64,000 nucleotides of DNA. Source: a virus. Taxonomy: Duplodnaviria > Caudoviricetes. The stretch covers positions 1 through 64,000 of the IMG/VR virus record IMGVR_UViG_3300021387_001565; one strand, given 5' to 3'. Of the stretch, positions 870 to 40,939 are shown piece by piece; the first letter of the stretch is position 1; each line of letters begins with the position of its first letter. Below the pieces are notes generated by a model. The model did no database searches. It was not told where the DNA came from and was given only the letters and a program-made list of their open reading frames with translations. Made by a program: the position numbers and the translations under genes.

Positions 870-1670
870 CTATAATTTTTTGTCAAATGTAGGAGATTCA
901 TGATATACTTCTTTATACCATAATCTGAGATACCTGCCTAAGTTCTGCTTAGCCGCCGCGTCGGACGTAAGCACAAAGGGTTTGTCACGTTTCATGCTCT
1001 CGACAACAGGTCTGCCCGACAGATTGATAAAATCATCAATAGGCATAGCGTTGAACTTTTCACCACGATAAGAATACACATCTGAATTTCCTGTAGATTC
1101 TTCGTCACGAACAATAGTCACGCAATCAATAGTGTTCCTGTTCTCGTAGACAAATTCCCATATGATGTCAAACCAATTGAAGCCTCTGCTCGATACTCTG
1201 AACACCATCTCTTTAGAGTTGTTGCGGCTATTATACATTCCGCCATAACGAGCACGCAAAAATTCTTGATTAAGTTCAGCATTAACTAACTCGTTATAGT
1301 CATCGATGTCCACGGTGTTAGATAATGCCTCGGAAGACAACGACTCGACAAAACCCTCGGATAAAAATCTGTAGGGTACATTGTGGATAAGTTTGAGAAG
1401 CATATTCTTACGCTCTTCTTCCGTACTTGTTTCCTTGCCGAAAGCAGGGTCAGAAGTACACATAAAGTCAGCATAAGAGGCTATAAAGTCAAGACAATCT
1501 TTCTTAACCTTATCATACTGTGTATGCTTGTAAAGCCATTCAGCCGCGAAGCAGGTCTCTTCGTAGTCTTCATTTCCACCACCATAAATGTGCTGTTTTA
1601 ACTGAAATACCTGCTTATCATTTCGTATCATGTAAGCATACTCCGAACTTTCTACTAACCTAAATTTCAT
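870..1670 (-). CDS. hypothetical protein with MKFRLVES leader (candidate internal head protein)
   Basis: GAGGTGA RBS; N-terminal motif shared with other proteins in the window. Confidence 0.75.
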   Translation of the reverse strand: MKFRLVESSEYAYMIRNDKQVFQLKQHIYGGGNEDYEETCFAAEWLYKHTQYDKVKKDCLDFIASYADFMCTSDPAFGKETSTEEERKNMLLKLIHNVPYRFLSEGFVESLSSEALSNTVDIDDYNELVNAELNQEFLRARYGGMYNSRNNSKEMVFRVSSRGFNWFDIIWEFVYENRNTIDCVTIVRDEESTGNSDVYSYRGEKFNAMPIDDFINLSGRPVVESMKRDKPFVLTSDAAAKQNLGRYLRLWYKEVYHESPTFDKKL

Positions 1671-1696
1671 AAAATCACCTCTATCATTAGTCTACT

Positions 1697-1725
1697 ATAT
1701 TGTACGCTAGAAAATCAACAGAAAT
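1697..1725 (-). promoter_or_regulatory. conserved promoter motif (variant)
   Basis: TTTCTGTTGATTTTC core. Confidence 0.5.
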
Positions 1726-1726
1726 T

Positions 1727-1760
1727 AAAAAGCCCGCATAGGATAAACCCTACGCGGACT
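1727..1760 (-). terminator. Rho-independent terminator
   Basis: GTCCGCGTAGG-GTTTAT-CCTATGCGGGC-TTTTT. Confidence 0.7.
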
Positions 1761-1765
1761 ACTAA

Positions 1766-2215
1766 TCACTTTTTGGGCTGTCCCCTATCATTGTCTTTCT
1801 CGGTAAAATACTTCTTGTACCGATTTAAAACACTTACCACATAATTGACCGTTACACACTTTGTAAAAGGCTCTTGTGCGGGATATATGTAGTTCGGTCC
1901 ATCTTCGATGTCCTGTACCATTTTATCCCACGGATGAAAAAGTGGCTCTATAGGGGCAGTAGGGATGCCCTCAAGGATATCGTCAATACCGCTCTGAATA
2001 AAGTTCTTCACGGCAATCAAGTCTTCTCCCACAAATTCCGCCTGTGCCCCCGAGGTCATCTTCTCAAGAGCATCAAGAGTATCAGCAAGAAGCACAAGAC
2101 CATTAACGGCTATTTCGTATGACTTACGGAACTCTTCGTATGCCTTATCATCAGAGAACACGTGGTTACTCTGCAAGGTCACGATAGCGTCACGTATTTG
2201 TTTGTTAAAGCCCAC
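1766..2215 (-). CDS. hypothetical protein
   Basis: AAGGAGA RBS, 149 aa. Confidence 0.7.
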   Translation of the reverse strand: MGFNKQIRDAIVTLQSNHVFSDDKAYEEFRKSYEIAVNGLVLLADTLDALEKMTSGAQAEFVGEDLIAVKNFIQSGIDDILEGIPTAPIEPLFHPWDKMVQDIEDGPNYIYPAQEPFTKCVTVNYVVSVLNRYKKYFTEKDNDRGQPKK

Positions 2216-2281
2216 AGTAATCTCCTTACGAGGGATTGCCCCTCAATGCTAAATTATATAGTTACTATGTAATTATACAAT

Positions 2282-2836
2282 TCAGACAAAGAGGCTAGGA
2301 AACTGTGCCTGTTCGACCTTCCGCTCAACAGTGCATATCGTGTCGTTATGCACTCCACCATGAGGGACAAGTAAGACACGCTCCATCGTGAACCCATATT
2401 CCATCCCTATACCCATGCTGTTCCAACCGAAGCACAAGACCTTGCCGTTAGGCTTGACTATCCTGCCTATCTCTTCCTTAAGGTGCTGATAGAAGTATTG
2501 TGCGGCATCCTGTGTCATGACCATGCCAAACCCTTCGTAGCATTGCTTAACTTGGGTCACAGAATATGGCGGGTCGAATAGCACCCCGTCTATGGATTCA
2601 TCCTCGAACATCTTCAAGAAGTCCAGAGCATCCATATGATAGTCTGTATCATACTTGGGGTTAAGGTCATTTGTTATGTCTGCGTATTTATTTTCGTTAG
2701 CAAACGGGTCAATCCATTTTCCATTTGTGATTTCCTGCAATAGCAGTTCACGTATCGGGGCTATGGTAAACGTGTTCTTGTTCGGCATAGCCCATACACG
2801 CTGTATCTTAATATCTCTTGGAGCATTACGTTTCAT
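2282..2836 (-). CDS. adenine-specific DNA methyltransferase (short phage type)
   Basis: WIDPFA SAM-binding-like motif and DPPY catalytic motif. Confidence 0.8.
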   Translation of the reverse strand: MKRNAPRDIKIQRVWAMPNKNTFTIAPIRELLLQEITNGKWIDPFANENKYADITNDLNPKYDTDYHMDALDFLKMFEDESIDGVLFDPPYSVTQVKQCYEGFGMVMTQDAAQYFYQHLKEEIGRIVKPNGKVLCFGWNSMGIGMEYGFTMERVLLVPHGGVHNDTICTVERKVEQAQFPSLFV

Positions 2837-2838
2837 TC

Positions 2839-3567
2839 TTAATCCTCATCACGGAGTCCTGTATGACCACTTCTCTTGGCAAAAGTTGTTCGTAAAAGTT
2901 GTTCGTTTAAGTATTGGTCTATAACAGACTGAGCCTTAGTTGTAGGGGCTATGTCGCTTAAACTCGAAGCATCAATAAGGTTATCAAATGCTATAGTCCT
3001 TGCAGTCTCAAGGAATACGTCAGAAGAAACTCTTGTCTTTTTAGTGTTTTTTGAAGACTTGCGATAAACAGTGTGCTTAGGCGAAGATGCAGGTGTGGGT
3101 GTTTTGTTCTGCTTTAATTCTTCGGTACGCTGTAACGCCTCTATCGCCTGAGCCATACTACCGTTACCACCAAGATTCTTATACTGCTTTACCCTTCTTG
3201 TACGAGCCGCACGCTTAGCCCTTTCCCTGTCCGCCTTTTTAAAGGTCTCTTTCAACCATTGACGGAACATAAACTCTGTTTCTGTCACTACAGAGCCACA
3301 GGCTTTGCAATAATAGCCCCCGTCCCATTCATCGGCTGTTATCTGTAACCTTCTGCGGAAGTCCCCACAATGAGGACAATAAAACCTCGGAAGCCTGCTT
3401 TTGTACTTATATGTAACTACCTGCTTCTGTGGGGAGTTCTGCTTACGGTCGCTTCTAATGTCTTGAACTAACTCGACAATAAAACCAATCACGGCGATTA
3501 TAAGAGTGATTATAGAAATGATTTTGAATAATTCCTGCATTGAGTTATGTCCTTTCTTAATCATCAA
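2839..3567 (-). CDS. membrane-anchored Zn-ribbon protein
   Basis: N-terminal TM helix; CPHC...CKAC. Confidence 0.65.
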   Translation of the reverse strand: MMIKKGHNSMQELFKIISIITLIIAVIGFIVELVQDIRSDRKQNSPQKQVVTYKYKSRLPRFYCPHCGDFRRRLQITADEWDGGYYCKACGSVVTETEFMFRQWLKETFKKADRERAKRAARTRRVKQYKNLGGNGSMAQAIEALQRTEELKQNKTPTPASSPKHTVYRKSSKNTKKTRVSSDVFLETARTIAFDNLIDASSLSDIAPTTKAQSVIDQYLNEQLLRTTFAKRSGHTGLRDED

Positions 3568-3781
3568 AAAGTTCTTCGTATGCTGAGGACGAGCCTATTC
3601 CATCATATTGTTCTCGGGCTTCGTTATAGCCGTCGTTATACCCACGCTCGTACTCTTTCTTACACTTCTTGGTCAGTCGGTCAACCTCTGCCTGTAGTTC
3701 GCGGACACGTGCTCTGAGGCTGTCGTTCTCTGCGGCAAGTGCACTGTTGTGATATGTCAAGCCAAAATACTCTGTAGGCAT
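3557..3781 (-). CDS. hypothetical coiled-coil protein
   Basis: starts MPTEYF after a G9 RBS; YERGYNDGY motif. Confidence 0.6.
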   Translation of the reverse strand: MPTEYFGLTYHNSALAAENDSLRARVRELQAEVDRLTKKCKKEYERGYNDGYNEAREQYDGIGSSSAYEELFDD

Positions 3782-3951
3782 TGTTATACCCCCCCCCTCA
3801 GACCGCATACTTGGCAAGGTCACGCACCAACTGCTTGCCTGCCTGTCGGTCGTAGTCCACCTTACTCTTGTGTGTACGAGTACCTGTGTTCATGCTGACG
3901 AACACTCTGTGACGCTTTGCGTCCATCTTGCGTTTATTCTTATCTACCATG

Positions 3952-4227
3952 TTATCCAATCCCCTCTCTGCTGATTGTTGCAAGTGCATCGTTTATGATA
4001 TGGTAGCAGTCCTGCACGGATATGTACAGTTGATACTTGCCTGTCTCGTCGGGAATGAGACGAGAAGAGTTACGGATATCTGCCATAATAGGTGTCCACA
4101 GCTTGACTGACTGTTCTGCAAACGTCTTCGCCTCAGTGACATCGTGACTCCAATATGACTTAGGATTAGTTAGTACATCAACCGCTAAGTCAAGGTTTAT
4201 GCTTCCATGAAGCTGTTTCATGTTCAT
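3952..4227 (-). CDS. hypothetical protein
   Basis: GAGGGGG RBS. Confidence 0.6.
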   Translation of the reverse strand: MNMKQLHGSINLDLAVDVLTNPKSYWSHDVTEAKTFAEQSVKLWTPIMADIRNSSRLIPDETGKYQLYISVQDCYHIINDALATISREGIG

Positions 4228-4264
4228 GCCTCAATCCCCCTCAACAATCATAGTATACCATATG

Positions 4265-5085
4265 TTGACACTCCACACGACTAAAGTCGTGGGATTCTTG
4301 CTTCGACGACCACTACATTGCTAAAAAGCGTTAGTTTTACATGGTCTCCACAAGCGTTAATTCCCGTATGCCCTACGGTACTGCTTATGTTTTAGGCTAC
4401 GGATAGCCCTTTATGTAAAATATTTATACTTGCATTGGTATCCCTATTATGTTTTGTATGACATTGTGGGCATTCCCAACTTCGTACTGATAAGTTCTTT
4501 ACCAAAGGATTTTTATAACCACAACAACTACAAGTCTGGCTACTTGGATACATAGTAGGTACTCGAACTACGTCATTTCCATACCAAGTTGCTTTGTATT
4601 CAAGCATTGTAAAGAACTTGCTCCATGATGCACTTGCTATAGATTTAGCAAGTTTATGATTACGCAACATTCCCTTTATATTTAGGTCTTCTATGCAAAT
4701 AGTTTGGTTTTCGCTTATAAGCATAGTTGACTGTTTTTGAAGGAAATCGTTACGTTGGTTGGTTATCTTCTCATGGACACGAGCAACTTTAATTCGCTGT
4801 TTATTGCGATTATTTGAATTTTGATGCTTGCGTGAGAGTCTGCGTTGTTCACGAACAAGTTTACGCATAGATTTTTCAAGGTATTTAGGATTATCTACCA
4901 CATTACCGTTGCTATCAGAATAAAACTCCTTAATACCAACATCTATGCCTATCATACAGCCATCATTATGACGAAACTCCGTCTCAAAATCTACGTTAAG
5001 AACTACAAAGTATTTACCTGTAGGAGTTCGTTCTACGGTTACATTATTGATATGTCCTACTTCCATAGACTGCTTGATTTTTACT
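4265..5085 (-). mobile_element. 5'-truncated IS200/IS605 element (tnpB 3' half, omegaRNA, right end ending TCAA)
   Basis: Right-end hairpin CCCACGACTTTAGTCGTGTGG-AGTGTCAA; omegaRNA-like GTACCGTAGGGCATACGGGAATTAACGCTTG; left end missing. Confidence 0.85.
4392..5084 (-). pseudogene. tnpB: truncated RNA-guided endonuclease TnpB (RuvC + Zn ribbon only)
   Basis: GIDVG, IEDL, CSCC...CPQC and RDTNAS motifs; the N-terminal region is lost and an in-frame TGA lies just before VKIKQSM. Confidence 0.9.
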
Positions 5086-5107
5086 CAACAAATTTGCCGA
5101 GGGGAGA

Positions 5108-5341
5108 TTAGGGCAGTATCTCAATTTTCAGAACGTATCCATACGCAGGTATCACAAACTCAACCGCATAATCAAGGTACTGCTCTGCTTCTTCCCAAGC
5201 GTAGAACTCGTCTACAGTTCCCACGAACAGAGACTTATCATGGAGTCTGAGATGTATGCTCTGATTTCCTGCAAGCAGGGCACACAGGTCAATTAAAACA
5301 ACAGGATTTGCCTGTCTTATTATTTCGAATTTGTCTAACAT
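5108..5341 (-). CDS. hypothetical protein
   Basis: GAGGT RBS, in operon. Confidence 0.6.
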   Translation of the reverse strand: MLDKFEIIRQANPVVLIDLCALLAGNQSIHLRLHDKSLFVGTVDEFYAWEEAEQYLDYAVEFVIPAYGYVLKIEILP

Positions 5342-5346
5342 AATTA

Positions 5347-5598
5347 TTACCTCTCTTCCACGTAGTAGGCAAGTGACTTACCTGTCTCACTATTGCAGTT
5401 GTAGTATGCATAGTGAGCACAGAAATTTTCAAAGTCTGAATCAGCAGGAATAACAGCAGGTGCTTGCCAAATACTGTACACCCACATCCTGTTGGGTAAA
5501 ACATAAACCGTCTCACCCTTCTTAAAACGAGAACGCGCTCCACGCACGTTAACCTTCTTGAACTTGATTTTGTCAGTAGGTCTCTCTATCATATACAC
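5347..5598 (-). CDS. hypothetical protein
   Basis: AGGGGG RBS; YYNCNSETG motif. Confidence 0.65.
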   Translation of the reverse strand: MYMIERPTDKIKFKKVNVRGARSRFKKGETVYVLPNRMWVYSIWQAPAVIPADSDFENFCAHYAYYNCNSETGKSLAYYVEER

Positions 5599-5615
5599 TC
5601 ATCCCCCTTCCCTAA

Positions 5616-5906
5616 TCACCAACGCGGTCTAAAGCCCCAAAGGTCTTTGAACACGTCGCTGTAAATCTCGCTGTAGTTCGGGTTAGCGGGATTGTTGGAG
5701 TGTTTGTTCAGCCACTCTTCTGTGTCCCTACGCCAACGGAGTTCATCAGCGATAGTGCCTGTGAAATTACCTTCCCAATCTACTGCCTGTGTCATACGGG
5801 CAACCTGCTCGATGTACTCACCCATATCATCAACCATGGGTGTCTCGTTGCTCATGTCTGCGAGTGCCGCGTTAAGTGTTTCTGCCGCAATAAGTGTTCT
5901 TGTCAT
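5616..5906 (-). CDS. hypothetical protein
   Basis: first gene after a promoter; YSDVFKDLWGFRPR C-terminus. Confidence 0.7.
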   Translation of the reverse strand: MTRTLIAAETLNAALADMSNETPMVDDMGEYIEQVARMTQAVDWEGNFTGTIADELRWRRDTEEWLNKHSNNPANPNYSEIYSDVFKDLWGFRPRW

Positions 5907-5952
5907 AATGAATACCCCCTGTAGTAGTTCGCTTGATTTATCTTACAAGTTC

Positions 5953-5989
5953 ATTATAAACTACTACAGAGGGTAAAATCAACAGATTT
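5953..5989 (-). promoter_or_regulatory. conserved phage promoter
   Basis: AAATCTG-TTGATT-18 nt-TATAAT. Confidence 0.8.
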
Positions 5990-6347
5990 AAAAACCAAGC
6001 ATATCATTCTCGGGGTTAATTGAGTTTTCAAGGAACTTAATAGCCCGCTTGATTCCATGCGCCTGTCCTTTTACCCATGCATCAAGGTCAGCCTCGGCTA
6101 CAGTATTAGGGACAATATCTTCTCGGGTCTTAACCATGTCGGGGAAAGTGAGTTCATTCGCAACAGCGGTTAATTTAGACCCTAAGCAACAAAAGCCGAG
6201 AGCGAGTCTAGCGCAAGTCTGAATTGCATCTTTAAGTTCGTCATCCTTGAGTATGTTATCAATCACACTCTCCTTGAACATCACTGTTTCAATTGCATGA
6301 ATGTAAGTGTGCAATTCATCGGCTTTATAAGTTTCGAGTTTCTTCAT
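5988..6347 (-). CDS. hypothetical protein
   Basis: ORF in operon. Confidence 0.65.
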   Translation of the reverse strand: MKKLETYKADELHTYIHAIETVMFKESVIDNILKDDELKDAIQTCARLALGFCCLGSKLTAVANELTFPDMVKTREDIVPNTVAEADLDAWVKGQAHGIKRAIKFLENSINPENDMLGF

Positions 6348-6352
6348 ACTTA

Positions 6353-6610
6353 TTATTCCTCTCTTTTAGTTTTTCTTACCAACACAGGTGTGTCAGACTC
6401 ATTGAACGGATAGATGCCATACTGACAAGGAAAGGCTTTTCCCGTCGCTAACCACTCGGGGTTTGTAGCGTCCGTACCAAGTTCACCGTTCTCTGTTAGA
6501 TACACTCCGCGAGCGGTGTACCCGCCCATTACTACGACATCACCCTCATGGATTTCCTTACCGTTCATATCAAAGTATCGAATAGGATTGGCGTCCCTAT
6601 CTATTCTCAT
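6353..6610 (-). CDS. small protein, YopX C-terminal-like
   Basis: DMNGKEIHEGDVV motif. Confidence 0.55.
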   Translation of the reverse strand: MRIDRDANPIRYFDMNGKEIHEGDVVVMGGYTARGVYLTENGELGTDATNPEWLATGKAFPCQYGIYPFNESDTPVLVRKTKREE

Positions 6611-6810
6611 ACTCTACCCCCTAACTTGTCGCGCTCTTCGTCTAGTTCCTCAGTTCTTTTGTACCCGTACCATCTGTGTTCCGCACCACAGCGTTCGGAG
6701 CAGTTGTCGTGCTCCTTGCCTTTGTAATCTGTCCACACCCAACCGCACACATGGTCACACTGAATACAATCGGGTTCTTCGTCATCGGCTGTGTATACTA
6801 TGTGCATCAT
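6607..6810 (-). CDS. small Cys-rich hypothetical protein
   Basis: ATGA overlaps; CxxC motifs. Confidence 0.55.
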   Translation of the reverse strand: MMHIVYTADDEEPDCIQCDHVCGWVWTDYKGKEHDNCSERCGAEHRWYGYKRTEELDEERDKLGGRV

Positions 6811-7025
6811 GAGTCCACCCCCTCATAGGTGGCTCTTGTGTTCCATGCCTTAACTGCACTTGGCATGTTTTCCCAAATATGGAATGTATGGATTGCAGAG
6901 CATCTACAATCACTGTTAGAGCAAACAATCGCACACTTACGGTCGCCTCTATAGTCAAACTCACTGTATACTGCTTTGCCGCCGCAAAACGGACAAGGCT
7001 TTAAATTCTCAGCACCGTTTGTCAT
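6807..7025 (-). CDS. Lar-family restriction-alleviation-like Zn finger
   Basis: LKPCPFCGG...AVKAWNTR. Confidence 0.75.
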   Translation of the reverse strand: MTNGAENLKPCPFCGGKAVYSEFDYRGDRKCAIVCSNSDCRCSAIHTFHIWENMPSAVKAWNTRATYEGVDS

Positions 7026-7408
7026 ACTCGTCCCTCTCTAGATTTCTGCAAGAATGCTATCAACTTGTCAATATCATAGTTAGTAAGTAACTTAGTACAG
7101 ATAACCATCTGTGAAGCAAGGTAACCGTTCTGCTTCCATGCCTTATAATCTTCGTCATGCGGATACGACCAGTCCACAACAATGTCAAGTTTATTCAAAC
7201 TCTTTAGGATACGTGTTAAGTCAGTGAGTTTGAACGCAAACGCAAGCGTATTATCAAGGTTGTCCTCAATCCAACTTGCCCAACCTGTACGGAATCTACA
7301 ACCTGTATTGTTTAAATCATTGTTGGATACCGAAATGTTATATTCTGCCCCCATAGCATTTAAGGAGCGAATAAGAACGTCATATCTCTCGGGAGAAATC
7401 TCAATCAT
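7022..7408 (-). CDS. hypothetical protein (paralog of 7431-7853)
   Basis: YDVLxR...LNxLxIxVDWS shared with the neighbour. Confidence 0.65.
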   Translation of the reverse strand: MIEISPERYDVLIRSLNAMGAEYNISVSNNDLNNTGCRFRTGWASWIEDNLDNTLAFAFKLTDLTRILKSLNKLDIVVDWSYPHDEDYKAWKQNGYLASQMVICTKLLTNYDIDKLIAFLQKSREGRV

Positions 7409-7430
7409 AATAGATAGTCCTGCCTTTCAT

Positions 7431-7853
7431 TCAGTCATGGATTGTATTAGTGGTTCTGCGTAGGTTGCCCTTGTCGTAGTCAAGCTCGTATTCACCCTCA
7501 AGCCACCCAACAAGCATGAAATCATATTTTTCAAGATTAACAAGCATGTGAGCACAGGCTAACGTGTCATTTGTAATGCCATTGCCCACAGGCTGACAGT
7601 CAGCATACCTCGACCAATCAACTTTAATCGCAAGACCGTTAAGAGAATCGGCAAGCACTCCTGCTGTTCCGAGTTTATAGCCAAAATCACGAGCTACCGC
7701 AGGGGTTTGAACCCCTTTAGCACACCAATTAACCCCGAACTTAAAGACTTCTTCTTTAGATGAATTGATACGCTCAAGGCTAACATCTGTGCCAAGCAGT
7801 TCTGTTATTGCCCGCCTAAGAACATCGTACTTGTAAGATGAGATTATAGTCAT
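7431..7853 (-). CDS. hypothetical protein (paralog of 7022-7408)
   Basis: first gene after a promoter; shared motifs. Confidence 0.65.
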   Translation of the reverse strand: MTIISSYKYDVLRRAITELLGTDVSLERINSSKEEVFKFGVNWCAKGVQTPAVARDFGYKLGTAGVLADSLNGLAIKVDWSRYADCQPVGNGITNDTLACAHMLVNLEKYDFMLVGWLEGEYELDYDKGNLRRTTNTIHD

Positions 7854-7903
7854 ATCTGTTCCTAACCCCCGTTCAGTAAGTGATAATCAGTAACTACAAG
7901 TAC

Positions 7904-7939
7904 ATTGTAGCATGGGGCGAAATAGAAAATCAACAGATT
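7904..7939 (-). promoter_or_regulatory. conserved phage promoter
   Basis: AATCTGTTGATTTT...TGCTACAAT. Confidence 0.75.
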
Positions 7940-7955
7940 CAGATGAGCCTACAGC

Positions 7956-8450: not shown

Positions 8451-8462
8451 ATTATTACCTCA

Positions 8463-9282: not shown

Positions 9283-9295
9283 TTATTCTCTCCTT

Positions 9296-10040: not shown

Positions 10041-10053
10041 TTGCTCTCCTTTC

Positions 10054-12799: not shown

Positions 12800-13090
12800 T
12801 TATATGCCGCCCTCTTTCCACAGGGCAGTGTTGACAGTGACCATCAAATCCTTAAGGAACTTCTCTGCTTCCTTCTGTGAACTCATCACGGCAGGAAGTT
12901 CACGCAAAGAAGCGGGCAGGCTAGACATAAAGTAGCACTGTTGTATTATATCGGTCACAAGTCGGTTAACCAATTCTTCTATTCCCTTTTGAGCAAGAAA
13001 CCGCTCAAAGTCGTCGCCCGATAAAGACCCTGTAGGAGCAAACTCCCCTACGGTCTTACAAATAACATCATATAATGAGTAAGTAGTCAT
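12800..13090 (-). CDS. hypothetical protein
   Basis: AAAGGA RBS before MTTYSL. Confidence 0.6.
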   Translation of the reverse strand: MTTYSLYDVICKTVGEFAPTGSLSGDDFERFLAQKGIEELVNRLVTDIIQQCYFMSSLPASLRELPAVMSSQKEAEKFLKDLMVTVNTALWKEGGI

Positions 13091-13106
13091 CGAACATGTC
13101 CTTTCT

Positions 13107-13406
13107 TTATTCTGCCCACACGCACCTGCTACCAAGTTCATGCTTACGCTTTGCTACTCTGTACCATGTTACATTGTCAAGCGATACCTCAAGGTACTCA
13201 TAACAGAATGAATGCTCATACGTTGAGCACATGTTATATTCACGTTCAGCCCATGTATAGGACTCATCTACAGTACAGCACAGGTACTTATAGAACCCGT
13301 CCTTGATACAGCACACAATGTCCTTGATAAGAGGTTCGGTACGGGGTTTAACCTCAGTCCAACCCATATCTTCCATAACCTTGATAGTAAGTTCGCTTCT
13401 CTTCAT
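13107..13406 (-). CDS. hypothetical protein
   Basis: AAAGGA RBS before MKRSEL. Confidence 0.55.
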   Translation of the reverse strand: MKRSELTIKVMEDMGWTEVKPRTEPLIKDIVCCIKDGFYKYLCCTVDESYTWAEREYNMCSTYEHSFCYEYLEVSLDNVTWYRVAKRKHELGSRCVWAE

Positions 13407-13417
13407 AGCCTGTCCTT

Positions 13418-13633
13418 TCAATCTGCTACGATAATATTTACCCATGCCTCACCATGAGACACGGTAGCATTGATTTCAAGCACGGAAAGGTCTCTGACCT
13501 TTCTCAGTTTCACAGGTGACTTGTGAGTGAGGTCAGCCACAGCACCCTCGAAGTAACAATACCTGTGCCGATTTCCAATGTATATATTCTGCGTACCGCA
13601 CCCTAAATGATAAATAAAATCCGCTACTGTCAT
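13418..13633 (-). CDS. hypothetical protein
   Basis: AGGGGG RBS before MTVADF. Confidence 0.6.
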   Translation of the reverse strand: MTVADFIYHLGCGTQNIYIGNRHRYCYFEGAVADLTHKSPVKLRKVRDLSVLEINATVSHGEAWVNIIVAD

Positions 13634-31562: not shown

Positions 31563-31573
31563 TCAGTCCTCTC

Positions 31574-32575: not shown

Positions 32576-32587
32576 CTTAAAATCCTT

Positions 32588-33484: not shown

Positions 33485-34287
33485 ACGATAAGTTCCTTCT
33501 TCAATGCTTCCCTCAGTGCAATCAAGTAGACCTCGAACAACTGCTGTATGTTCATCTTGGGCTGTTGACAGTCCAACAATAGCCGATTGGTCAGCAAGTA
33601 AGACTGATACAGGGGCTGTTGCTCCACAATACGATTGTAAAGCAACTTCCGCAGGCACTTGATAAACAACATAACATTTATCTTAGTCTGCTCGTTATTG
33701 AACGCAAGTCGCTTGGGAATACCGTATAGGGCGTTGGGTATAGTGGTACTGCCTAACTTGAGGATTACCTTCTCCGCAAACTGTGCCGCCAAATTCATAT
33801 CCTGTGATTGGTATGCAAGGACATCCCCCGGGGTCTCACAAAACTGCAAAAAGTAATCGGGAACATCTTCTGCTACAAAAGTATGCAACTGAGGGAGAGT
33901 GTACTTTTCAAACTCAAGTCTGATGCATCGATTAAGGATAGTGTCGAGCACCACGTGAGCATTGGTCACAAGCAGTAAAATATAAACATTGGGGCTTGGC
34001 TCTTCCAAGAACTTGAGGATAACATTCTGCTCCTTGACTGTTATAGCATTCATGTTGATAACATAGAACGTAGGGGTAGCAGACAGGTATATCTCCGTGA
34101 TAGTATCTAGGGATAAACGCTCTGTAATGTCCTGTAAAGGCAGTCCAAAGCACTCAGACATATAATTGCATAGTAAATGCTTTCCACAGCCAGTCTCGCC
34201 ACACAGGAGCATTGTATGGGGCAATCCTGCAATGGGCATACCGTTGAAAAAGTCCATGAGTTTATCTTGAAACTTAATCTCTACCAT
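33481..34287 (-). CDS. holB: clamp loader delta' subunit (HolB-like)
   Basis: GETGCGK, QNVILKFLEEP, TILNRC. Confidence 0.8.
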   Translation of the reverse strand: MVEIKFQDKLMDFFNGMPIAGLPHTMLLCGETGCGKHLLCNYMSECFGLPLQDITERLSLDTITEIYLSATPTFYVINMNAITVKEQNVILKFLEEPSPNVYILLLVTNAHVVLDTILNRCIRLEFEKYTLPQLHTFVAEDVPDYFLQFCETPGDVLAYQSQDMNLAAQFAEKVILKLGSTTIPNALYGIPKRLAFNNEQTKINVMLFIKCLRKLLYNRIVEQQPLYQSYLLTNRLLLDCQQPKMNIQQLFEVYLIALREALKKELIV

Positions 34288-34288
34288 T

Positions 34289-36289
34289 TTACACCTCGGG
34301 AGTATACCGCGCCATCTGTAAGAGTAATACCTCAATCGTTGTTTTGGGGTTCGGGTCATCCTTAATCTCATTCTTCAAAGCAAGCAGAGAGTTCATGTAG
34401 TATTTGAAGAACTTATCCGCCCCCTCAAAGCCTACGGTAAAATCGAGTTTACTTTGCATACTCTCGGGAATGCTGATTAAGTCAAACGACTTAAATATCA
34501 GATACTTGCACACATCTGCTATGAAATCGAAGTAGGTACTGATAAACAAGTGCAGGTCTTTACCGTCAAAATAAAAATCGTTAACGGTCTGTAACACCGC
34601 AGGCTCATTATCATCCACAAGAGCGTCTGTCAATGCGAAGAAAGAATCATAGGAATAATTACCAAGACAGTACAGTACGTTATCGAGATTAAGGTCAGTG
34701 CTGTAAGACGCGCACTTGTCAAGGTTTGCAATCGCATCACGCATCTGTCCCTTGCTTATCTTGGCGATATACTCACACGCCGCTTGATAATTGATAAACT
34801 GCTCCTGTGAACAGATGTACATCAATCTGTCCCGTATCTTATCCCACGGAATACGCTGTAGATTATACCGCTGTAAACGATTAAGGATAGTAGCAGGTAT
34901 CTTCTCGGGATTAGTAGTACAGAACATAAAGATGGTGTATGCAGGTGGCTCTTCTAAGCATTTAAGAAACGCTGTCCAAGCGGCACTGCCGAGACTCTGG
35001 CATTCATCGATAATGTAAACCTTATACTCTGCCCCGATAGCCCGCTCCGACGCAGATGCCACAATCGACCTAACATTTTCTACCCCATTATTTGAAGCCG
35101 CATCAATCTCTATAATACCTGCAAGCGAACCGTTAATAGCCTTAGCCAATGCCCTTGCTGTGGTAGTCTTGCCGCAGTTACCTGTAATTATGATGTGTCC
35201 GTTCCTTCGCATTACCCATTGATGTGTCGGCACAGTAAAGCAATACTTGAACCCGTCAACAGAAGAAACGCTATCGACAGGGCTTTTACCGAACCCTACA
35301 GTAGCAGAGTGCTTAGCCGTAATAACAAGCGTGTAGTTACATTCAGTGCCATAAGTATAAACTTTCGACTGACCGCCAACAATTCGAGTTAAAGTACGTC
35401 CTTTGCGAACGTCTTCTCGTATCGACGTTCTGTAACCGCAGGAAGCGAACGCAAACTGAATAAAATCAATCGTATCCTTATTTTTCTGATGGAAGGTTTT
35501 GTGTTTACTCTCACACCCACCCCACTTCAAAATATTATCTACGATAACCTGTAACTGATGTGCAGAACAATTATACCAGTAGGAACTAAATGCCTTTTCC
35601 TTGCGGGGGGCTATAAATGAGAACAGAGTATACCCGTTCTGTTTTGCAGTAGTCTTATAGTCAATTTTGCAATCCTTAAGAATTTGATGAAGTTCCTCTA
35701 TCTTGCGAGACTTCTTAAGATGAACAAAACACCTCGAAGTTGCACAGTCAGATTTAAACGTGCCATCGCATATAACTGCACACATCAACCTTATCTCTGA
35801 GTCAGTTAAATCAATCCCACTACCACTATAATTGAATGTGGTCAATAATCTACCGCTAAATCCGTATCGAGCCTTACGCTGTCGAGAAACTAAATCTGCG
35901 CATCTTATAGTATAAATCTTTTCCTTGTGCTCATACACAACAGTATGGTCGTCACATAGCATCATATCTACACCATACTTAGTATGAAAATAATTGAACT
36001 CACTGCACGGAAATTTTAAATAGTCTACAGGGGTCACAAGGGACGCTGTACGGGTTACAGGGTCAAATTGAAGAACCTTCTCACCACCCGTGTAGTCCGC
36101 AATCTTCTTCCATGTCGTGCCATTAAAATACTCTGTGTCTCTATCAACACAGCCCGACGGTCCAGCAAAAAGATAACAATTACGTATTTTATGTTCCGCT
36201 ATCTGCTTCTGTATAATAGCAGACACCGAGTTCTGCCCGACTATCTCTTCGAGCGTGCTTGGTCTGTATTTGGTAGCCAATGCTTCCAT
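34289..36289 (-). CDS. dnaX: clamp loader gamma/tau subunit with intein
   Basis: LATKYRP, GPSG|CGKTT, EIDAASNNGV, IIDECQ, LKCLEEPP. Confidence 0.93.
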   Translation of the reverse strand: MEALATKYRPSTLEEIVGQNSVSAIIQKQIAEHKIRNCYLFAGPSGCVDRDTEYFNGTTWKKIADYTGGEKVLQFDPVTRTASLVTPVDYLKFPCSEFNYFHTKYGVDMMLCDDHTVVYEHKEKIYTIRCADLVSRQRKARYGFSGRLLTTFNYSGSGIDLTDSEIRLMCAVICDGTFKSDCATSRCFVHLKKSRKIEELHQILKDCKIDYKTTAKQNGYTLFSFIAPRKEKAFSSYWYNCSAHQLQVIVDNILKWGGCESKHKTFHQKNKDTIDFIQFAFASCGYRTSIREDVRKGRTLTRIVGGQSKVYTYGTECNYTLVITAKHSATVGFGKSPVDSVSSVDGFKYCFTVPTHQWVMRRNGHIIITGNCGKTTTARALAKAINGSLAGIIEIDAASNNGVENVRSIVASASERAIGAEYKVYIIDECQSLGSAAWTAFLKCLEEPPAYTIFMFCTTNPEKIPATILNRLQRYNLQRIPWDKIRDRLMYICSQEQFINYQAACEYIAKISKGQMRDAIANLDKCASYSTDLNLDNVLYCLGNYSYDSFFALTDALVDDNEPAVLQTVNDFYFDGKDLHLFISTYFDFIADVCKYLIFKSFDLISIPESMQSKLDFTVGFEGADKFFKYYMNSLLALKNEIKDDPNPKTTIEVLLLQMARYTPEV
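35177..36151 (-). mobile_element. intein (325 aa) in the DnaX Walker A motif, with LAGLIDADG-like domain
   Basis: CVDRDTEY...ITGN|C; removal restores GPSGCGKTT. Confidence 0.92.
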
Positions 36290-36302
36290 ATCAAATCACC
36301 TT

Positions 36303-36680
36303 TCAGTTTAATTGCTCAAGTAGTTCCATACCGTTAGTGGGTAACCACAGCCCGTCATACATCTCAGTGTAATCATCCTGCTGAGTAGTTATGTCGTAAG
36401 CCACACAACCTATCTTGACCATGTTACCCATAATCTGCTGTACTTGGCATCGCATATACTGAGCCACAGGAACTATACCTCTGTTCCAATTCTTAGCCAA
36501 AGACAGATTATCCGAGGGATGTCTAATCCACTCGGCAATCTTAATAATATAGAACTTATCCTGTTCAAGTTTGGGTTTGCGATGTCGGTAAATCACGAAC
36601 TCAGTTGTAGTATCGTCTATGGGCGGAAGTTTAGCCCATTTGACATTCTGCAACTGCTTCTTAATTATCTCGTTCATCAC
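36303..36680 (-). CDS. hypothetical protein
   Basis: in operon. Confidence 0.7.
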   Translation of the reverse strand: MMNEIIKKQLQNVKWAKLPPIDDTTTEFVIYRHRKPKLEQDKFYIIKIAEWIRHPSDNLSLAKNWNRGIVPVAQYMRCQVQQIMGNMVKIGCVAYDITTQQDDYTEMYDGLWLPTNGMELLEQLN

Positions 36681-37339
36681 TTGCCCTCAACCAACAGCAG
36701 GTTGGGCTCAACAAGGAAACTTGCGTATGTATCTGCTAAATGAAGCAGAGCCGCAAGCGGGCAAGAACAAAATGCGTAAGTAAACTGCTTGCCCAAATTA
36801 AAGTCCTCGCCTGTGTACCCTGTATGATGTAAGATAGCAATTATCTCATCATATGTCAGAGTTACCCAACGCTGTAACATAAACACGGAAGAATCCTCGT
36901 GTCGTCCAAATGTAAAACTATCCTTGAGGTTGCGTTTTGTCCACACCTCTTCGGTAATCCAATCATACCTACCAAGAGAGTCAGCCTTTGACCCCTGCGG
37001 ATGATAAGACTTCTTGTTCTTGTAGTCAAGACAGTACAGGTTAGTCTTTGATAAATCGTGAAATAAAGCCACGATAGCAAGAGTAGCGTCACTGTACGGA
37101 CAAGGTGTGTCCCCATAGCGCATCGAGACAAGTTTTTTTAGCGCGTCGTAAACATTGAGCACATGGTCACACAAACCCCCCGTGCACACATTATGAAACA
37201 TAGTGCTTGCAGGGGCAGTAAAAAAGTCAGACTGTTTAAGCCAAGTAAGAAGTCCGTCCCAATCTTCCTCGGGACGTGCAGGCTTCAAAACCTCTTCAAC
37301 AATCTGAACAAATCGTTTCGTATTCTCTTTAACATCCAT
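36677..37339 (-). CDS. HD-domain phosphohydrolase
   Basis: APASTMFH..GGLCDH; HDLSK; HH; LHLAD. Confidence 0.85.
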   Translation of the reverse strand: MDVKENTKRFVQIVEEVLKPARPEEDWDGLLTWLKQSDFFTAPASTMFHNVCTGGLCDHVLNVYDALKKLVSMRYGDTPCPYSDATLAIVALFHDLSKTNLYCLDYKNKKSYHPQGSKADSLGRYDWITEEVWTKRNLKDSFTFGRHEDSSVFMLQRWVTLTYDEIIAILHHTGYTGEDFNLGKQFTYAFCSCPLAALLHLADTYASFLVEPNLLLVEGK

Positions 37340-37343
37340 CAGT

Positions 37344-37589
37344 CTATGCCTTCCTTTCAAATTCATGGTCAGATACAAGCGTGAGCTTTTCAAGTGGTAC
37401 AGCGAAACAAGAAATCCTGCCATTATCGTCTAACGGACAGGAACGAATATCTGAGCCGCTTATCTTATATACCTTACCCTGTAAGTGCTTTGCCTTGGTA
37501 AACCTAATAAGATTGTCCCCGCTCTGCACTTTATAGGTAGCGATAAGTACAACATTGTCGTGATAACGTGGTGTCCAAATCTCAATCAT
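37344..37589 (-). CDS. hypothetical protein
   Basis: AGGGGG RBS. Confidence 0.6.
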   Translation of the reverse strand: MIEIWTPRYHDNVVLIATYKVQSGDNLIRFTKAKHLQGKVYKISGSDIRSCPLDDNGRISCFAVPLEKLTLVSDHEFERKA

Positions 37590-37707
37590 CTTCTTTTATC
37601 CCCCTCATCCTCATACATTACAAGAAAATAGCAAAGTCCAAGTAGCCCACAGGCAAATGCATACACAACCCACATAACAATTCCCCTTTCTCACAGTCTA
37701 TAGCTAT

Positions 37708-37744
37708 ATTATAGACAATGGGAAAGGGAAAAATCAACGGATTT
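37708..37744 (-). promoter_or_regulatory. conserved phage promoter
   Basis: AAATCCGTTGATTTT...TATAAT. Confidence 0.75.
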
Positions 37745-37750
37745 TTAATA

Positions 37751-38218
37751 TTACTCATCGAGTTGCATCAAAATTATCGGACTCGGCTGATGATACGGGA
37801 ACGCACGAACAATATTGTAACAATAATATTCAGACGCCTCATCGTGGGGCATGTTCTGAGCATCGGTGAGATGGCTCATTATGGCATCGTGGTCGTACAC
37901 CAATCTTCCGTCCTGTGACACTCCAACAACCGCAGTAGCGAATCCGTCTATAAGGTAACAATCATCTGCTTCGTCCGTGTCAAGGTACGCCTGTCGTACT
38001 TCGTCGTCAGTTTTGTACGGAGTATCGTATGTATGTGCTTTGAACGTGACGGCAAACCACAAAGAGCCTGTGCTATCAATAGACTCGCAGTAATCTATAC
38101 TGTCGTGCTGTCTAAGTCGCTCGGCAAGTTCGGTGACATCTTCTTTACTACATGCATCAAGCAACATCTCTTCCCCGTCAGACATGACCGCTTTGCTGTT
38201 AAACAATATCCTTCTCAT
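37751..38218 (-). CDS. hypothetical phage protein
   Basis: DGFATAVVG...LVYD...EASEYYCYN. Confidence 0.7.
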   Translation of the reverse strand: MRRILFNSKAVMSDGEEMLLDACSKEDVTELAERLRQHDSIDYCESIDSTGSLWFAVTFKAHTYDTPYKTDDEVRQAYLDTDEADDCYLIDGFATAVVGVSQDGRLVYDHDAIMSHLTDAQNMPHDEASEYYCYNIVRAFPYHQPSPIILMQLDE

Positions 38219-38226
38219 ATTAGCCT

Positions 38227-38895
38227 CTATTCTTTGTACGCTCGTCTACGATGCATAGCCCTGCTCATAAACGTCCTGTGTGTATCGAGAGATTCCTCAA
38301 ACTCGCCCTCGTTACGGATTGGGGTTACTTCATCGCCAAACTGTGCCAAGTTAATTCTGAACTTAAACCCATACTGACTAAAGAAGTCTTCACTGTCTTC
38401 AAGAGATACTTTATCTGTAACCTCAATCAATTTATATGTCTTGCAGGCATTTGATGTTTCGTAGTAAGCAATATGTACATGGTCATCATATACCTTGCCA
38501 AAGAAAAAACTCTCTTGCCCGTAGTTCCGTGCAATCTCTTCTGCATCGTCTTTTTCAACATTAAACACAATCATGCTGTGCTCAACTGAACCGTAACTAC
38601 CACGGATATTAGCATAGTTAAAACCACCGTAACGCACGGTCTTATCACCTAACTGTCTTATAGCATCTTGGACTAATTCAACCTTTGCCGCCTTTCTTGC
38701 ATCTCTATTATATTGTTTGGGATTAGCAAGCCATTGCTGATACCTCTGTAAAATTTCTTCATCCGTAGCGTTCTTCCACCCCAACGGGTTCTCTACAGAC
38801 AAAATAGCAAACGTCCTAATTTTGCTTGCAGGATTGCCAAAAAGGGCGTGCTTCACTCTTCGATAATTATTACTTTCAGATAATTTAAATCTCAT
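38227..38895 (-). CDS. putative SAM lyase/DUF3293-like protein with MRFKLSES leader
   Basis: FAILSVENP...GSYG..EHSMIV...ARNYGQESFF. Confidence 0.6.
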   Translation of the reverse strand: MRFKLSESNNYRRVKHALFGNPASKIRTFAILSVENPLGWKNATDEEILQRYQQWLANPKQYNRDARKAAKVELVQDAIRQLGDKTVRYGGFNYANIRGSYGSVEHSMIVFNVEKDDAEEIARNYGQESFFFGKVYDDHVHIAYYETSNACKTYKLIEVTDKVSLEDSEDFFSQYGFKFRINLAQFGDEVTPIRNEGEFEESLDTHRTFMSRAMHRRRAYKE

Positions 38896-38903
38896 CGGTC
38901 ACC

Positions 38904-39152
38904 TCAATCTACAGTCTCAATGTAGAAACCGTGCTTGCCACGAGTAAACTGCACACGAGGATATTCACCCTCACCATTTTCCCATGCAAGATACTCATCC
39001 TTAAGAGCGTAACTGCCTATCTGCTTACCGCCATATCCTTCCCAATAGCCTGTAAGCATAAAGTCAGTCTGTCCTGTAGGCAGGTTAAAGTCTCTCACAA
39101 TCTTGCGGTCAGTCTCATCCACCGCTTTTATCTCACCGTGATAAGTTCTCAT
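38904..39152 (-). CDS. hypothetical protein
   Basis: AGGGGG RBS. Confidence 0.6.
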   Translation of the reverse strand: MRTYHGEIKAVDETDRKIVRDFNLPTGQTDFMLTGYWEGYGGKQIGSYALKDEYLAWENGEGEYPRVQFTRGKHGFYIETVD

Positions 39153-39155
39153 CCG

Positions 39156-39689
39156 TTAAACCCCCTTTGGATAGCCAACCATTATCTTTGTGATAGGCTC
39201 TCCGTCAATCATCCTTGTGTAGTGATACCCATCGGGCTGAATCTGTATCTGCTTGTGTGGAAGCAATTTCTGAACAGTCTCGGCAGGAATCACCTGTGCT
39301 CCCTTCTTGTTGATGTAAATGTGTTCCATAGCGTCTGACACCTCAGCATATGCCATGCGGTCAGTCAATTTTACATCATCATCAACTATCTTGTAGAACG
39401 CATCTTTAGCCACAGGGTCAGTCTCACCTGTCACATCGTCCTTCCTCGCTCCACCGAGAACAACCTTACGCCCGTGGTTAGTCAACTTATAAATCTGACA
39501 GGCAACTATCTTATTGCCCTTCCTAACGAGTTTCCACAGAATGTTATCCTGCATCATCTCATCTTTATTTGTTCCTTTAACACCACCGATTTTGGCGTAG
39601 GCTTTGTTCAGTAAAGCCCACACCTCATCAAAGTAGCGTTCTTTTTCGTCTTTATCATCAATGATGTTCACGTAGCTTTCAAGTAGCAT
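39156..39689 (-). CDS. hypothetical protein with MLLES leader
   Basis: AYAKIGG..WKLVRKG, a pattern recalled from large-myophage proteins. Confidence 0.7.
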   Translation of the reverse strand: MLLESYVNIIDDKDEKERYFDEVWALLNKAYAKIGGVKGTNKDEMMQDNILWKLVRKGNKIVACQIYKLTNHGRKVVLGGARKDDVTGETDPVAKDAFYKIVDDDVKLTDRMAYAEVSDAMEHIYINKKGAQVIPAETVQKLLPHKQIQIQPDGYHYTRMIDGEPITKIMVGYPKGV

Positions 39690-40252
39690 GTTTTTCTGAC
39701 CTCATCAAGTAGTGATGCTAACGTCGGAATTATCTCAGACGTAATCCTGTGCTTGCCAATGCCCGTAAGAATAACCTCACGAGGGTGATACATTTTATTA
39801 TACAATGCAAGCCTATCATTATCTACCTTAATGACATCATCGTTTAAGCAGAATACTGTAGTTGTTTCGCAGTAATACTCGTAGTCGTATTCATCACGCA
39901 AAAACTCGTTGAGGATAGCATCGAGGTCTGTAGCAAACGTGGGAGACACTTTATCAAGAGACTCGGATACGTACTTCTTTACGTCCGCACCACCATTGAA
40001 CGCGGGGTTAATGAGTATCTTAGGTCGATTGCACAGCATCTGTGCATAGAAACCACCAAGACTGCATCCAACAATCACGTCAATCTCGGGGAAAGCATGA
40101 TAAAAGTCAAGGATGTCCTGCAAACCCTTCTTGCAGTCATAATTATCATATTCTACGGATAAGATATTATCCTGCGGAAACGACTGACGCAGTAACTGTG
40201 TGGTTGACCCATCTGCTGAGCCAAGTAACCCATGAATGTACATAATGTTCAT
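39668..40252 (-). CDS. YqiA/UPF0227 alpha/beta hydrolase (esterase)
   Basis: YIHG, GCSLGG, LINP, DDVI, KHR. Confidence 0.85.
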   Translation of the reverse strand: MNIMYIHGLLGSADGSTTQLLRQSFPQDNILSVEYDNYDCKKGLQDILDFYHAFPEIDVIVGCSLGGFYAQMLCNRPKILINPAFNGGADVKKYVSESLDKVSPTFATDLDAILNEFLRDEYDYEYYCETTTVFCLNDDVIKVDNDRLALYNKMYHPREVILTGIGKHRITSEIIPTLASLLDEVRKTCYLKAT

Positions 40253-40281
40253 CTAAATGCCCCCTTTCGTCTCACAAGGAT

Positions 40282-40317
40282 ATTATATCACACGAAGAAA
40301 AGAAAAATCAACGGATT
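40282..40317 (-). promoter_or_regulatory. conserved phage promoter
   Basis: AATCCGTTGATTTT...TGATATAAT. Confidence 0.75.
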
Positions 40318-40390
40318 GAAAACCCGTTGATTTAAACTCCATGATGTCACCTCTGCTCTTGTGCTTGTTTTTGTGTCAAGTATGTGAACA

Positions 40391-40939
40391 TCAATCGCCG
40401 TTAATAAGATAAACTTTCTTGGTTGAGTAATCCTTTACAAGGACAGCTTCCTGTAAAAACAAATTGCACAATTCAGTCGCAATATCAATCAGTTCATCGT
40501 GGGTAATTCCCACAATATCTACAGCAATGCTATTTTCCCCGAATGCCTTACCGTTTTTCGCTGTGTATCTACCCGAAAGCCCCTTGCTAATAGTCCATCC
40601 TGCAAGGTCATGCTTCTGTGCCACCGCGTCAATCTTACCTGTAGAAGACAATCGATTGTTGATTGTAGCAATCTTCTGCTTAACCCAATTTACTATTTTA
40701 TTCTTCGACATCTGCTCAGCGTTCACGTCGGTAGAAAATACAATAGTGCCACCCAAGTTAGCATCGTCAAAAGAGAAATCAATTCCTTCTGATAAGACCT
40801 GTCGCCCCGCGACCTCTGTGCTATACTGCGAAAAAGACTCACGCTTAATACTGCGGTATAAATACCTTGACGTTCCGTAAGCCCCATTCCCCACAGCATC
40901 ACCAACAACAACTAAAGGTTCAGTCAATTTAAACTTCAT
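40391..40939 (-). CDS. putative SAM lyase-like protein with MKFKLTE leader
   Basis: GWTI...GRY...GENSIAV...IATELC..FLQEAVLV. Confidence 0.55.
   Translation of the reverse strand: MKFKLTEPLVVVGDAVGNGAYGTSRYLYRSIKRESFSQYSTEVAGRQVLSEGIDFSFDDANLGGTIVFSTDVNAEQMSKNKIVNWVKQKIATINNRLSSTGKIDAVAQKHDLAGWTISKGLSGRYTAKNGKAFGENSIAVDIVGITHDELIDIATELCNLFLQEAVLVKDYSTKKVYLINGD

Follow-up and report, generated by a model that had tools for sequence, protein, structure and literature searches.

Our analysis of the uncultured phage genome IMGVR_UViG_3300021387_001565 (G000; a single contig of 147,319 bp, whose first 64 kb form the window studied here) revealed a short leader, M-[KR]-F-[KR]-L-x(1-2)-E, hereafter the tag, at the N-termini of five genes in the window and, in a rough gene call, of seven genome-wide. 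The shared leader is real and lies far beyond chance. Further, it is selected as a protein sequence, is portable between proteins, is kept in part of the clade to which the phage belongs, and co-occurs with a T4-type head module. The first-pass annotation had read it as a capsid-targeting signal that loads a set of effectors into the head for ejection with the DNA. Comparative evidence, namely the motif scan, the protease, the L-x-E sites of head proteins, and conservation across the clade, supports this reading, and we consider the tag to be probably a T4-type leader for capsid targeting and processing, by which accessory enzymes are loaded into the head; its docking, cleavage, packaging, and ejection are steps that we infer.

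The leader peptide and its distribution in related phages

The five strict N-termini reported in the first-pass annotation (starts at 1670, 20645, 24268, 38895, and 40939, by which the proteins are named here) were all confirmed on the minus strand, which carries nearly all genes of the genome. Each start is preceded, as had also been reported, by a Shine-Dalgarno sequence, GAGGT(G/A), 5-9 nt upstream, and by an in-frame stop 1-15 codons upstream. Extending the motif scan from the window to the whole genome added two members, with starts at 96474 and 122403. Specifically, [KR]F[KR]Lx(1-2)E occurs nine times in the six-frame translation, seven times as a leader N-terminus and twice in non-genic frames, with no copy inside the called proteins (40,931 residues). 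Under the genome's own position-specific N-terminal residue frequencies, 0.006 tagged N-termini would be expected, versus the seven observed, and none of 20,000 column shuffles yielded more than one. When all genes were clustered, without bias, by their first seven residues, the tag emerged as the sole large group, the other groups being pairs or triplets of obvious paralogs. Two looser members had been listed as well. The 39689 protein (MLLES) is supported by an ortholog in the related contig G006 that is 43% identical and starts MKFKLTEH, and the 19845 protein (MKLINES) is a plausible member.

The pattern of variation among leaders points to the peptide, rather than the DNA, as the object of selection. 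Across 18 leaders from three genomes, all four Lys/Arg codons (AAR/AGR), both Phe codons, and four Leu codons are in use; as codons vary synonymously at every conserved position, selection acts on the peptide. Leu5 (P3) is present in 18/18 leaders and Glu at position 7 (P1) in 17/18, with position 6 (P2) free and represented by 12 different codons. The member with two residues before the Glu, MKFKLLTE, retains the P3/P1 register relative to that Glu through its L-T-E. Upstream of the Shine-Dalgarno sequence, the DNA is unrelated between leader genes, and the GAGGT[GA] ribosome-binding site (RBS) is itself ordinary for this genome (34/213 genes). Judged by these sequences, the tag is under protein-level selection, and its invariant P3 Leu and P1 Glu around a free P2 form the same pattern as the motif of the T4 prohead protease gp21.

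Relatives of this phage are numerous: public metagenome collections contain over 3,400 homologs of its portal. Using a search from the portal alignment, we fetched 80 related IMG/VR loci, in which the strict tag stands at the start of 11 of 1,185 genes. Tags were also counted in ten related contigs using a degenerate DNA pattern, with the reversed pattern as a control. There were six matches in G006 (IMGVR_UViG_3300021399_000113) and six in G009 (IMGVR_UViG_3300028797_000104; L116-L123), five of the latter on real open reading frames (ORFs), two each in G011, G012, and G013, one in G007, and none in G008, G010, G014, or G015. All matches fell on the coding strand, and the reversed pattern gave 0. 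In G009, six of seven consecutive genes start with the tag or a close variant. This contig seems to read TAG as a sense codon, given that its long-ORF coverage rises from 0.23 to 0.67 once TAG is no longer treated as a stop, and its leader-bearing genes are open only under that reading.

Within the clade, the tag is conserved on different cargo, including types known or predicted to be injected. The G006 ortholog of the 40939 protein is 67% identical and starts MKFRLKES, with the next dozen residues after the tag having diverged, and the 24268 ortholog there starts MRFQLLDEA. A G006 protein related to 38895 starts MKFKLTEN and matches DUF3293 at 33 bits, and the acidic 122403 family begins MKFRLLES, MKLKLKEN, or MKMKKLVLNE in other genomes. 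The 96474 protein (284 aa) matches a 493-aa relative over the latter's C-terminal half, and the tag stands at the start of both; the tag is portable, staying N-terminal when the domain architecture changes. In an alignment of this family, six of seven members have [LV]-x-E some five residues ahead of their conserved core, either N-terminally (MKLSE, MKVLE, MKFLKE) or internally. In one relative, a protein starting MRIRLTE carries an ART-PolyVal ADP-ribosyltransferase domain (PF18760, E 1.4e-21), a combination not found in G000, and other tagged or near-tagged proteins of relatives are methyltransferase-like, DUF3293, or BspA-type leucine-rich repeat (LRR) proteins.

One relative, of 202 kb, encodes an 897-residue multi-domain protein (L053:2514-5207, plus strand) about 5 kb upstream of its portal gene. 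It contains a Cu/Zn superoxide dismutase domain (PF00080, E 3.7e-30), and its last domain is homologous to the 96474 protein. H-F-K-L-T-E/A precedes the dismutase domain and P-L-T-E/A the conserved core (the slash marks the point after the Glu). Overall, F[KR]LxE occurs 22 times N-terminally versus about 0.2 expected and 13 times internally versus 11.9 expected; because internal copies are not enriched, these junction sites are suggestive only.

A short peptide of this kind also turns up elsewhere. A single codon version of the tag gave one match in each of 31 IMG/VR contigs, many of them unrelated to this clade. A pattern with fixed RBS spacing found no match in IMG/VR. Outside contigs gave one match to the degenerate pattern (once two), versus five to seven in G000, G006, and G009. 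Single MKFKLxE starts therefore arise by chance, and the signal lies in multiplicity and in orthologous conservation within the clade. That any MKFKLxE start implies a T4-type head was considered and rejected, with an S77 protease present in only one of ten outside contigs tested.

Among cultured phages, megablast with 8 kb of the window and tblastn with the 96474 protein found nothing. The nearest cultured capsid proteins, about 32% identical, are those of HSE3, SP-15, LIS04, and GXN1, for which no virion proteomics was found in the literature searched. HSE3 holds only two or three weak look-alikes of the tag. In this Bacillus phage (vB_BceM-HSE3, MF418016.1), two adjacent small genes (12927-13106 and 13195-13461) start MKFRNTNE and MKFRRINE, possibly a trace of a similar leader.

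The head module and its own L-x-E sites

The first-pass annotation had pointed to a gp21-like protease and to L-x-E sites in the capsid or scaffold proteins as checks on its reading, and both are encoded in this genome. At 90-96 kb, outside the window, lie, in order, a Portal_T4 portal gene (gp20-type, 127.9 bits), a gene for a conserved 149-aa protein, a gene for an S77 protease fused to a coiled coil, and a gene for a Gp23-family capsid protein (102 bits), which is the order of T4 genes 20, 67/68, 21, 22, and 23. The protease matches PF03420 (Peptidase_S77, gp21-type) at 50.6 bits (cut-off 27). When it is aligned to T4 gp21 (5jbl), its ELDHP, GVSSRG, and WDAV fall over the segments holding the T4 catalytic His, Ser, and Asp. 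The S77 domain occupies the first ~176 residues (about 30-176) of a 514-residue protein and is followed by a coiled coil of ~330 residues with weak Myosin_tail and ADIP matches. Just after the protease domain, at the junction with the coiled coil, stands V-T-E/S, which aligns with I-T-E/S of T4 gp21. The catalytic segments, this site, and the fusion itself are kept in 37 relatives, whereas in T4 the protease (gp21) and the scaffold (gp22) are encoded by separate genes.

The capsid protein bears conserved sites of the same kind. In about 60 relatives, its N-terminal region is conserved, with L-L-E at residues 3-5, A-V-S-E/S near residue 15, and K-[FY]-L-N-E/A-F at residues 45-50. At the sequence level, the last of these closely matches the T4 gp23 maturation site, S-F-L-T-E/A. 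Residue 30 of mature T4 gp23 aligns to capsid residue 69, which places the site within about ten residues of the equivalent position; the first 100 capsid residues gave no alignment to T4 gp23 in the PDB. Two further head-module proteins have N-terminal sites conserved across relatives, [YF]-L-x-E/A-F in the protein encoded at 88173-89207 and L-L-E/A in that encoded at 82771-83580. In distant relatives of the latter, a longer N-terminal extension precedes the site, which is what a propeptide boundary would predict.

As a separate observation on the capsid gene, many relatives have it called only as an N-terminal piece of 60-100 residues that ends shortly after a conserved GTQRSDxG (for example L078:15337-15627, L063:15340-15609, L029:14023-14214, and L036:15612-15881, among others). 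These short calls suggest an interrupted gene, with an intron, an intein, or an endonuclease as the inserted element; such an interruption is annotated in Bacillus phage SP-15.

Bodies of the leader-bearing proteins and their gene surroundings

The bodies behind the leaders had been described as largely different from each other. This holds insofar as BLASTP found no significant similarity among the seven, and it needs amending insofar as the 20645 and 40939 proteins, and perhaps 38895, look like remote paralogs with an S-adenosylmethionine (SAM) lyase fold, leaving at least five independent body types. In profile searches, 20645 matches PF23780 (S-adenosylmethionine lyase) at 35.6 bits, above the cut-off of 28; 40939 reaches 25.2 bits against the same family, below the cut-off, and phrog_2226 at 1e-5; and 38895 matches DUF3293 at 19 bits, below a cut-off of 25. 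Profile-profile comparison (hhalign) of the 20645 family with 40939 and 38895 was weak, with probabilities of 7% and 25%, and comparison with the 1670 protein was null. An AlphaFold2 (AF2) model of 20645 (predicted local distance difference test, pLDDT, 64.5) has an N-terminal extension of ~45 residues with low pLDDT (residues 1-45), followed by a SAM-lyase-like domain starting at PLTEASLNK. Its top four Foldseek matches are the phage SAM lyases 6zm9, 6znb, 7ock, and 8bb1 (E 2.5e-3 to 2.2e-2; template-modelling score 0.45-0.50 by target). Among the 26 closest homologs of the SAM-lyase-like family, 14 start with M-[KR] followed by [LIV]-x-E ending by residue 9, versus a background of 3-6% of genes in these genomes, and several close representatives start MKFK. 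In G006, a single 457-residue ORF (91581-92950) holds 20645-like and 38895-like domains in tandem, which in G000 are separate genes.

Of the remaining bodies, the 96474 protein, which has no Pfam match, gave a model with pLDDT 81.8 and disorder at residues 1-20. Over residues 22-157, this model matches sulfiredoxin (Z 5.6), Osa (Z 5.0), and a serine kinase (Z 5.0), and Foldseek returned ParB-N, Osa, and Noc with E values of 0.16-0.9. The family has an invariant QEG[LR]HRM motif. On these modest and suggestive matches, the protein is a probable ParB/Srx-like one. In both AF2-modelled proteins (20645 and 96474), the leader lies in a low-confidence tail outside the folded core. The 1670 body had no match in Pfam, PHROG, or NCBIfam and was uninformative in Protein Atlas, the 24268 protein had no family match, and Protein Atlas and NCBIfam gave nothing usable for the bodies without assigned function.

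Further L-x-E-[SAG] sites inside several leader proteins had also been reported. They are not clearly enriched, with [LI]xE[SAGT] occurring seven times in 1,590 residues versus a background of 0.25 per 100, and we rejected extra internal sites as a mark of cargo. PLTEAS of the 20645 protein was likewise rejected as a phage-specific cleavage site. It belongs to a domain motif, LTExxLNR, that is nearly invariant across homologs of the whole family, including fusions of 500-830 residues.

Some 20 genes, among them the capsid gene, the 96474 gene, and non-structural genes, have a TTGTAT[AG][AT]T element 28-86 nt upstream. The 1670 and 24268 genes are instead preceded by TTGATTTT and a -10-like box. 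A separate CTGTTGATTTT box stands upstream of some other genes, e.g., 1670 and 24268; this box and the TTGTAT[AG][AT]T element are probably two promoter classes. Apart from the leader genes, three small neighbouring paralogs outside the window share a start of their own. The coordinates of all these features are collected in Table 1.

Table 1. Leader-bearing proteins and other features of the genome; positions up to 64,000 lie in the window.
Feature	Position	Strand	N-terminus or motif	Remarks
Leader protein, 266 aa	870..1670	minus	MKFRLVE/S	body without assigned function
Leader protein, 267 aa	19842..20645	minus	MKFKLVE/E	SAM-lyase-like domain
Leader protein, 172 aa	23750..24268	minus	MKFKLLTE/A	x2 variant
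Leader protein, 222 aa	38227..38895	minus	MRFKLSE/S	possible remote SAM-lyase/DUF3293-like body
Leader protein, 182 aa	40391..40939	minus	MKFKLTE/P	weak SAM-lyase-like match
Degenerate member, 177 aa	39156..39689	minus	MLLE/S	ortholog in G006
Possible loose member, 108 aa	19519..19845	minus	MKLINE/S	overlaps stop of 20645 gene
Leader protein, 284 aa	95620-96474		MRFRLVEA	outside window; immediately upstream of portal gene
Leader protein, 267 aa	121600-122403		MKFRLQET	outside window; very acidic
Protease-scaffold protein, 514 aa	91637-93181 (L002:7637-9181)	minus	V-T-E/S after protease domain	outside window
Head-module protein	88173-89207		[YF]-L-x-E/A-F	
Head-module protein	82771-83580		L-L-E/A	
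Promoter-like element	2280, 27765, 29246, 50116, 57779	minus	TTGTAT[AG][AT]T	in window
Promoter-like element	64649, 74452, 89257, 90023, 91620, 96502 and others	minus	TTGTAT[AG][AT]T	elsewhere in genome
Three small paralogs, 85-102 aa	128903-130828	minus	M-[QK]-[LI]-[LV]-I-[ND]-I-D-[ED]-E-[ED]-Y	outside window

Proposed function of the leader and known systems

If the tag is a capsid-targeting leader, then tagged proteins would be made with a flexible N-terminal tail, and this tail would dock the protein onto the core of the prohead during assembly, with the coiled-coil scaffold part of the protease-scaffold protein as the probable docking site. The gp21-like S77 protease would then cut after the invariant Glu at P1, with the invariant Leu at P3, and the mature protein would be left inside the head and ejected with the DNA. 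The cargo would be early-acting host-takeover or anti-defence enzymes, SAM-lyase-like proteins and a probable ParB/Srx-like protein here, and an ADP-ribosyltransferase, a methyltransferase-like protein, and an LRR protein in relatives. A broader proposal, which we advance only tentatively, is that the tag defines the proteins injected by a large clade of uncultured gut/rumen phages, comprising SAM or SAM-AMP lyases, a ParB/Srx-type enzyme, ADP-ribosyltransferases, and methyltransferases. These would disarm SAM-dependent defences (type I/III restriction, BREX, and SAM-AMP-signalling CRISPR) before phage gene expression, and the prohead protease would split 'polyvalent' proteins in the capsid at the L-x-E sites between their domains.

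Several points weigh against the capsid-targeting reading. The phage is uncultured, and the support is comparative throughout. In the 40939 member, P1' is Pro, a residue disfavoured there by many serine proteases. Leader genes are dispersed, several of them among replication genes, and promoter analysis neither showed late expression of these genes nor allowed a timing class to be assigned. The complete relatives G008 and G010 have the protease and no strict tag, and they are without most of the cargo genes. The rarity of the S77 protease among tagged outside contigs means that the peptide alone is not diagnostic. Finally, the fold assignments of the cargo are weak (best E 2.5e-3; Z 5-5.6), and up to three of the seven bodies may be remote paralogs.

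Some of these points would suit an N-terminal signal that acts independently of both the protease and the head, perhaps as a shared peptide that docks proteins on some other partner from phage or host, or as a shared degron that sets when early proteins are removed. The early or replication-type neighbours of the dispersed genes, the promoter analysis, which showed no late expression, and those relatives with the same protease and no tag are all consistent with such a signal. Even so, we regard it as unlikely, given that the invariant positions are exactly the P3 Leu and P1 Glu of the gp21-type motif, that the capsid protein, the protease, and other head proteins keep the same L-x-E register, and that the cargo types match injected effectors. 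An account closer to the capsid-targeting reading accepts that the tag targets the prohead and is cleaved, and takes the cargo to be assembly or core components, like T4 gp67 and gp68, rather than ejected effectors. The highly acidic 122403 protein, conserved across the clade, could be seen in this way, as could the 96474 gene, which adjoins the portal gene, and T4 core proteins have similar N-termini. However, most tagged proteins are accessory and absent from the complete relatives G008 and G010, and their enzyme-like domains (SAM-lyase-like, ADP-ribosyltransferase, methyltransferase-like) have no obvious assembly role, making this account improbable.

It is very improbable that the shared start is a feature of the RNA or of translation initiation, for instance a start region rich in A/U or a mobile 5' cassette. 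AAA, TTT, TTA, and GAA are the commonest tag codons, and a strong Shine-Dalgarno sequence precedes all members, but that type of RBS is widespread in the genome, the DNA further upstream shows no conservation, the tag draws on the full codon range described above (four for Lys/Arg, two for Phe, four for Leu), and the peptide is kept in G009 with its different genetic code. Least credible of all is that chance or the common descent of paralogs produced the pattern. Three of the bodies may be remote paralogs, and single MKFKLxE starts do occur by chance in unrelated viruses; against this, seven tagged N-termini were observed for 0.006 expected, no relation can be detected among at least four of the bodies, and the tag, which is kept when the architecture changes, shows far stronger conservation than the bodies do.

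Should the tag work as a capsid-targeting leader, effectors delivered by the virion could be recognized by a simple sequence rule throughout a very large family of uncultured phages, and mostly function-unassigned proteins would be flagged as candidates for new anti-defence or host-takeover activities. No packaged SAM lyase was described in the literature searched. Foreign proteins might also be loaded into such capsids with the tag as a short handle, a use to which the T4 leader is put. If the internal FKLTE/A and PLTE/A junctions are real cleavage sites, then the prohead protease would be linked to the processing of 'polyvalent' injected proteins. Particular to this system are a new 7-residue consensus, the distant uncultured lineage with its protease-scaffold fusion, and the enzyme-sized cargo, together with this possible link to the processing of multi-domain injected proteins.

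The closest known counterpart is the capsid targeting sequence (CTS) of phage T4, which the internal proteins IPI, IPII, and IPIII carry and gp21 cleaves (Mullaney and Black 1996, as reviewed in PMC9026906, PMC3012670). These internal proteins are described as diverse anti-restriction proteins that have only the targeting sequence in common (PMC3012670). Proteases of the T4 family cut after a Glu that has Leu or Ile two residues before it, and the proteins of the T4 head bear N-terminal propeptides of 6-20 residues ending in that motif (PMC5694885, PMC9026906). In the T4 record, the N-termini read MELITE in Alt, ..LRE in gp24, ..LIE in gp67, ..IPE in gp68, ..IAE in gp22, and ..LIE in gp21. Like the CTS, the tag is a short N-terminal peptide ending in [LI]-x-Glu that is common to otherwise unrelated, fast-evolving proteins, and both systems have a gp21-family protease, a gp23-family capsid protein, a gp20-family portal, and cargo thought to be anti-defence. 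T4 internal-protein leaders also start with Met-Lys. The tag differs from the CTS in its length (7 residues rather than 10-19) and sequence, and in being known from genes alone. Further, it belongs to a distant uncultured clade with Gram-positive-type Shine-Dalgarno sequences and a protease fused to a coiled-coil scaffold-like region, and its cargo is enzyme-sized (170-280 aa), unlike the small basic T4 internal proteins.

A second T4 parallel is Alt, an ADP-ribosyltransferase that is packaged in the head and whose N-terminal propeptide, of 6 residues, is cut at ITE-6 (PMC5694885). Its MELITE resembles the tag in length and P3/P1 pattern, and in one relative MRIRLTE precedes an ADP-ribosyltransferase domain, although this ART-PolyVal domain (PF18760) is treated as a clade distinct from Alt/VIP2 (PMC5512222). 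In phiKZ and SPN3US, head and ejection proteins have propeptides cut by S80 proteases at [SAG]-x-E (PMC5694885, PMC10052503). As is proposed here, a gp21-related protease cuts after Glu in those phages; their paralogous ejection proteins likewise share conserved N-termini, and their propeptides contain multiple sites. These propeptides are mostly longer than 100 residues with a small P3 residue, unlike the 7-residue tag, whose P3 is Leu as in T4.

The cargo itself invites comparison with proteins injected by other phages. ADP-ribosyltransferase and ParB-like domains belong to the set attributed to proteins that are injected along with phage DNA (Iyer et al. 2017, PMC5512222), with T4 Alt and P1 DdrB as packaged prototypes of such domains (PMC5512222). 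The proteins of the P1 Dar system and the 'polyvalent proteins' are head-packaged anti-restriction and host-modifying enzymes, including the methyltransferase/helicase DarB, DdrB with its ParB-like domain, and ADP-ribosyltransferases (PMC5512222). The 897-aa protein, with FKLTE/A and PLTE/A at its domain junctions, resembles these polyvalent proteins, whereas the leader proteins of G000 are single-domain. P1 loads its proteins through DarA/Hdf and an ordered incorporation, with no shared short leader; in the clade described here, by contrast, most cargo is single-domain and bears one common tag.

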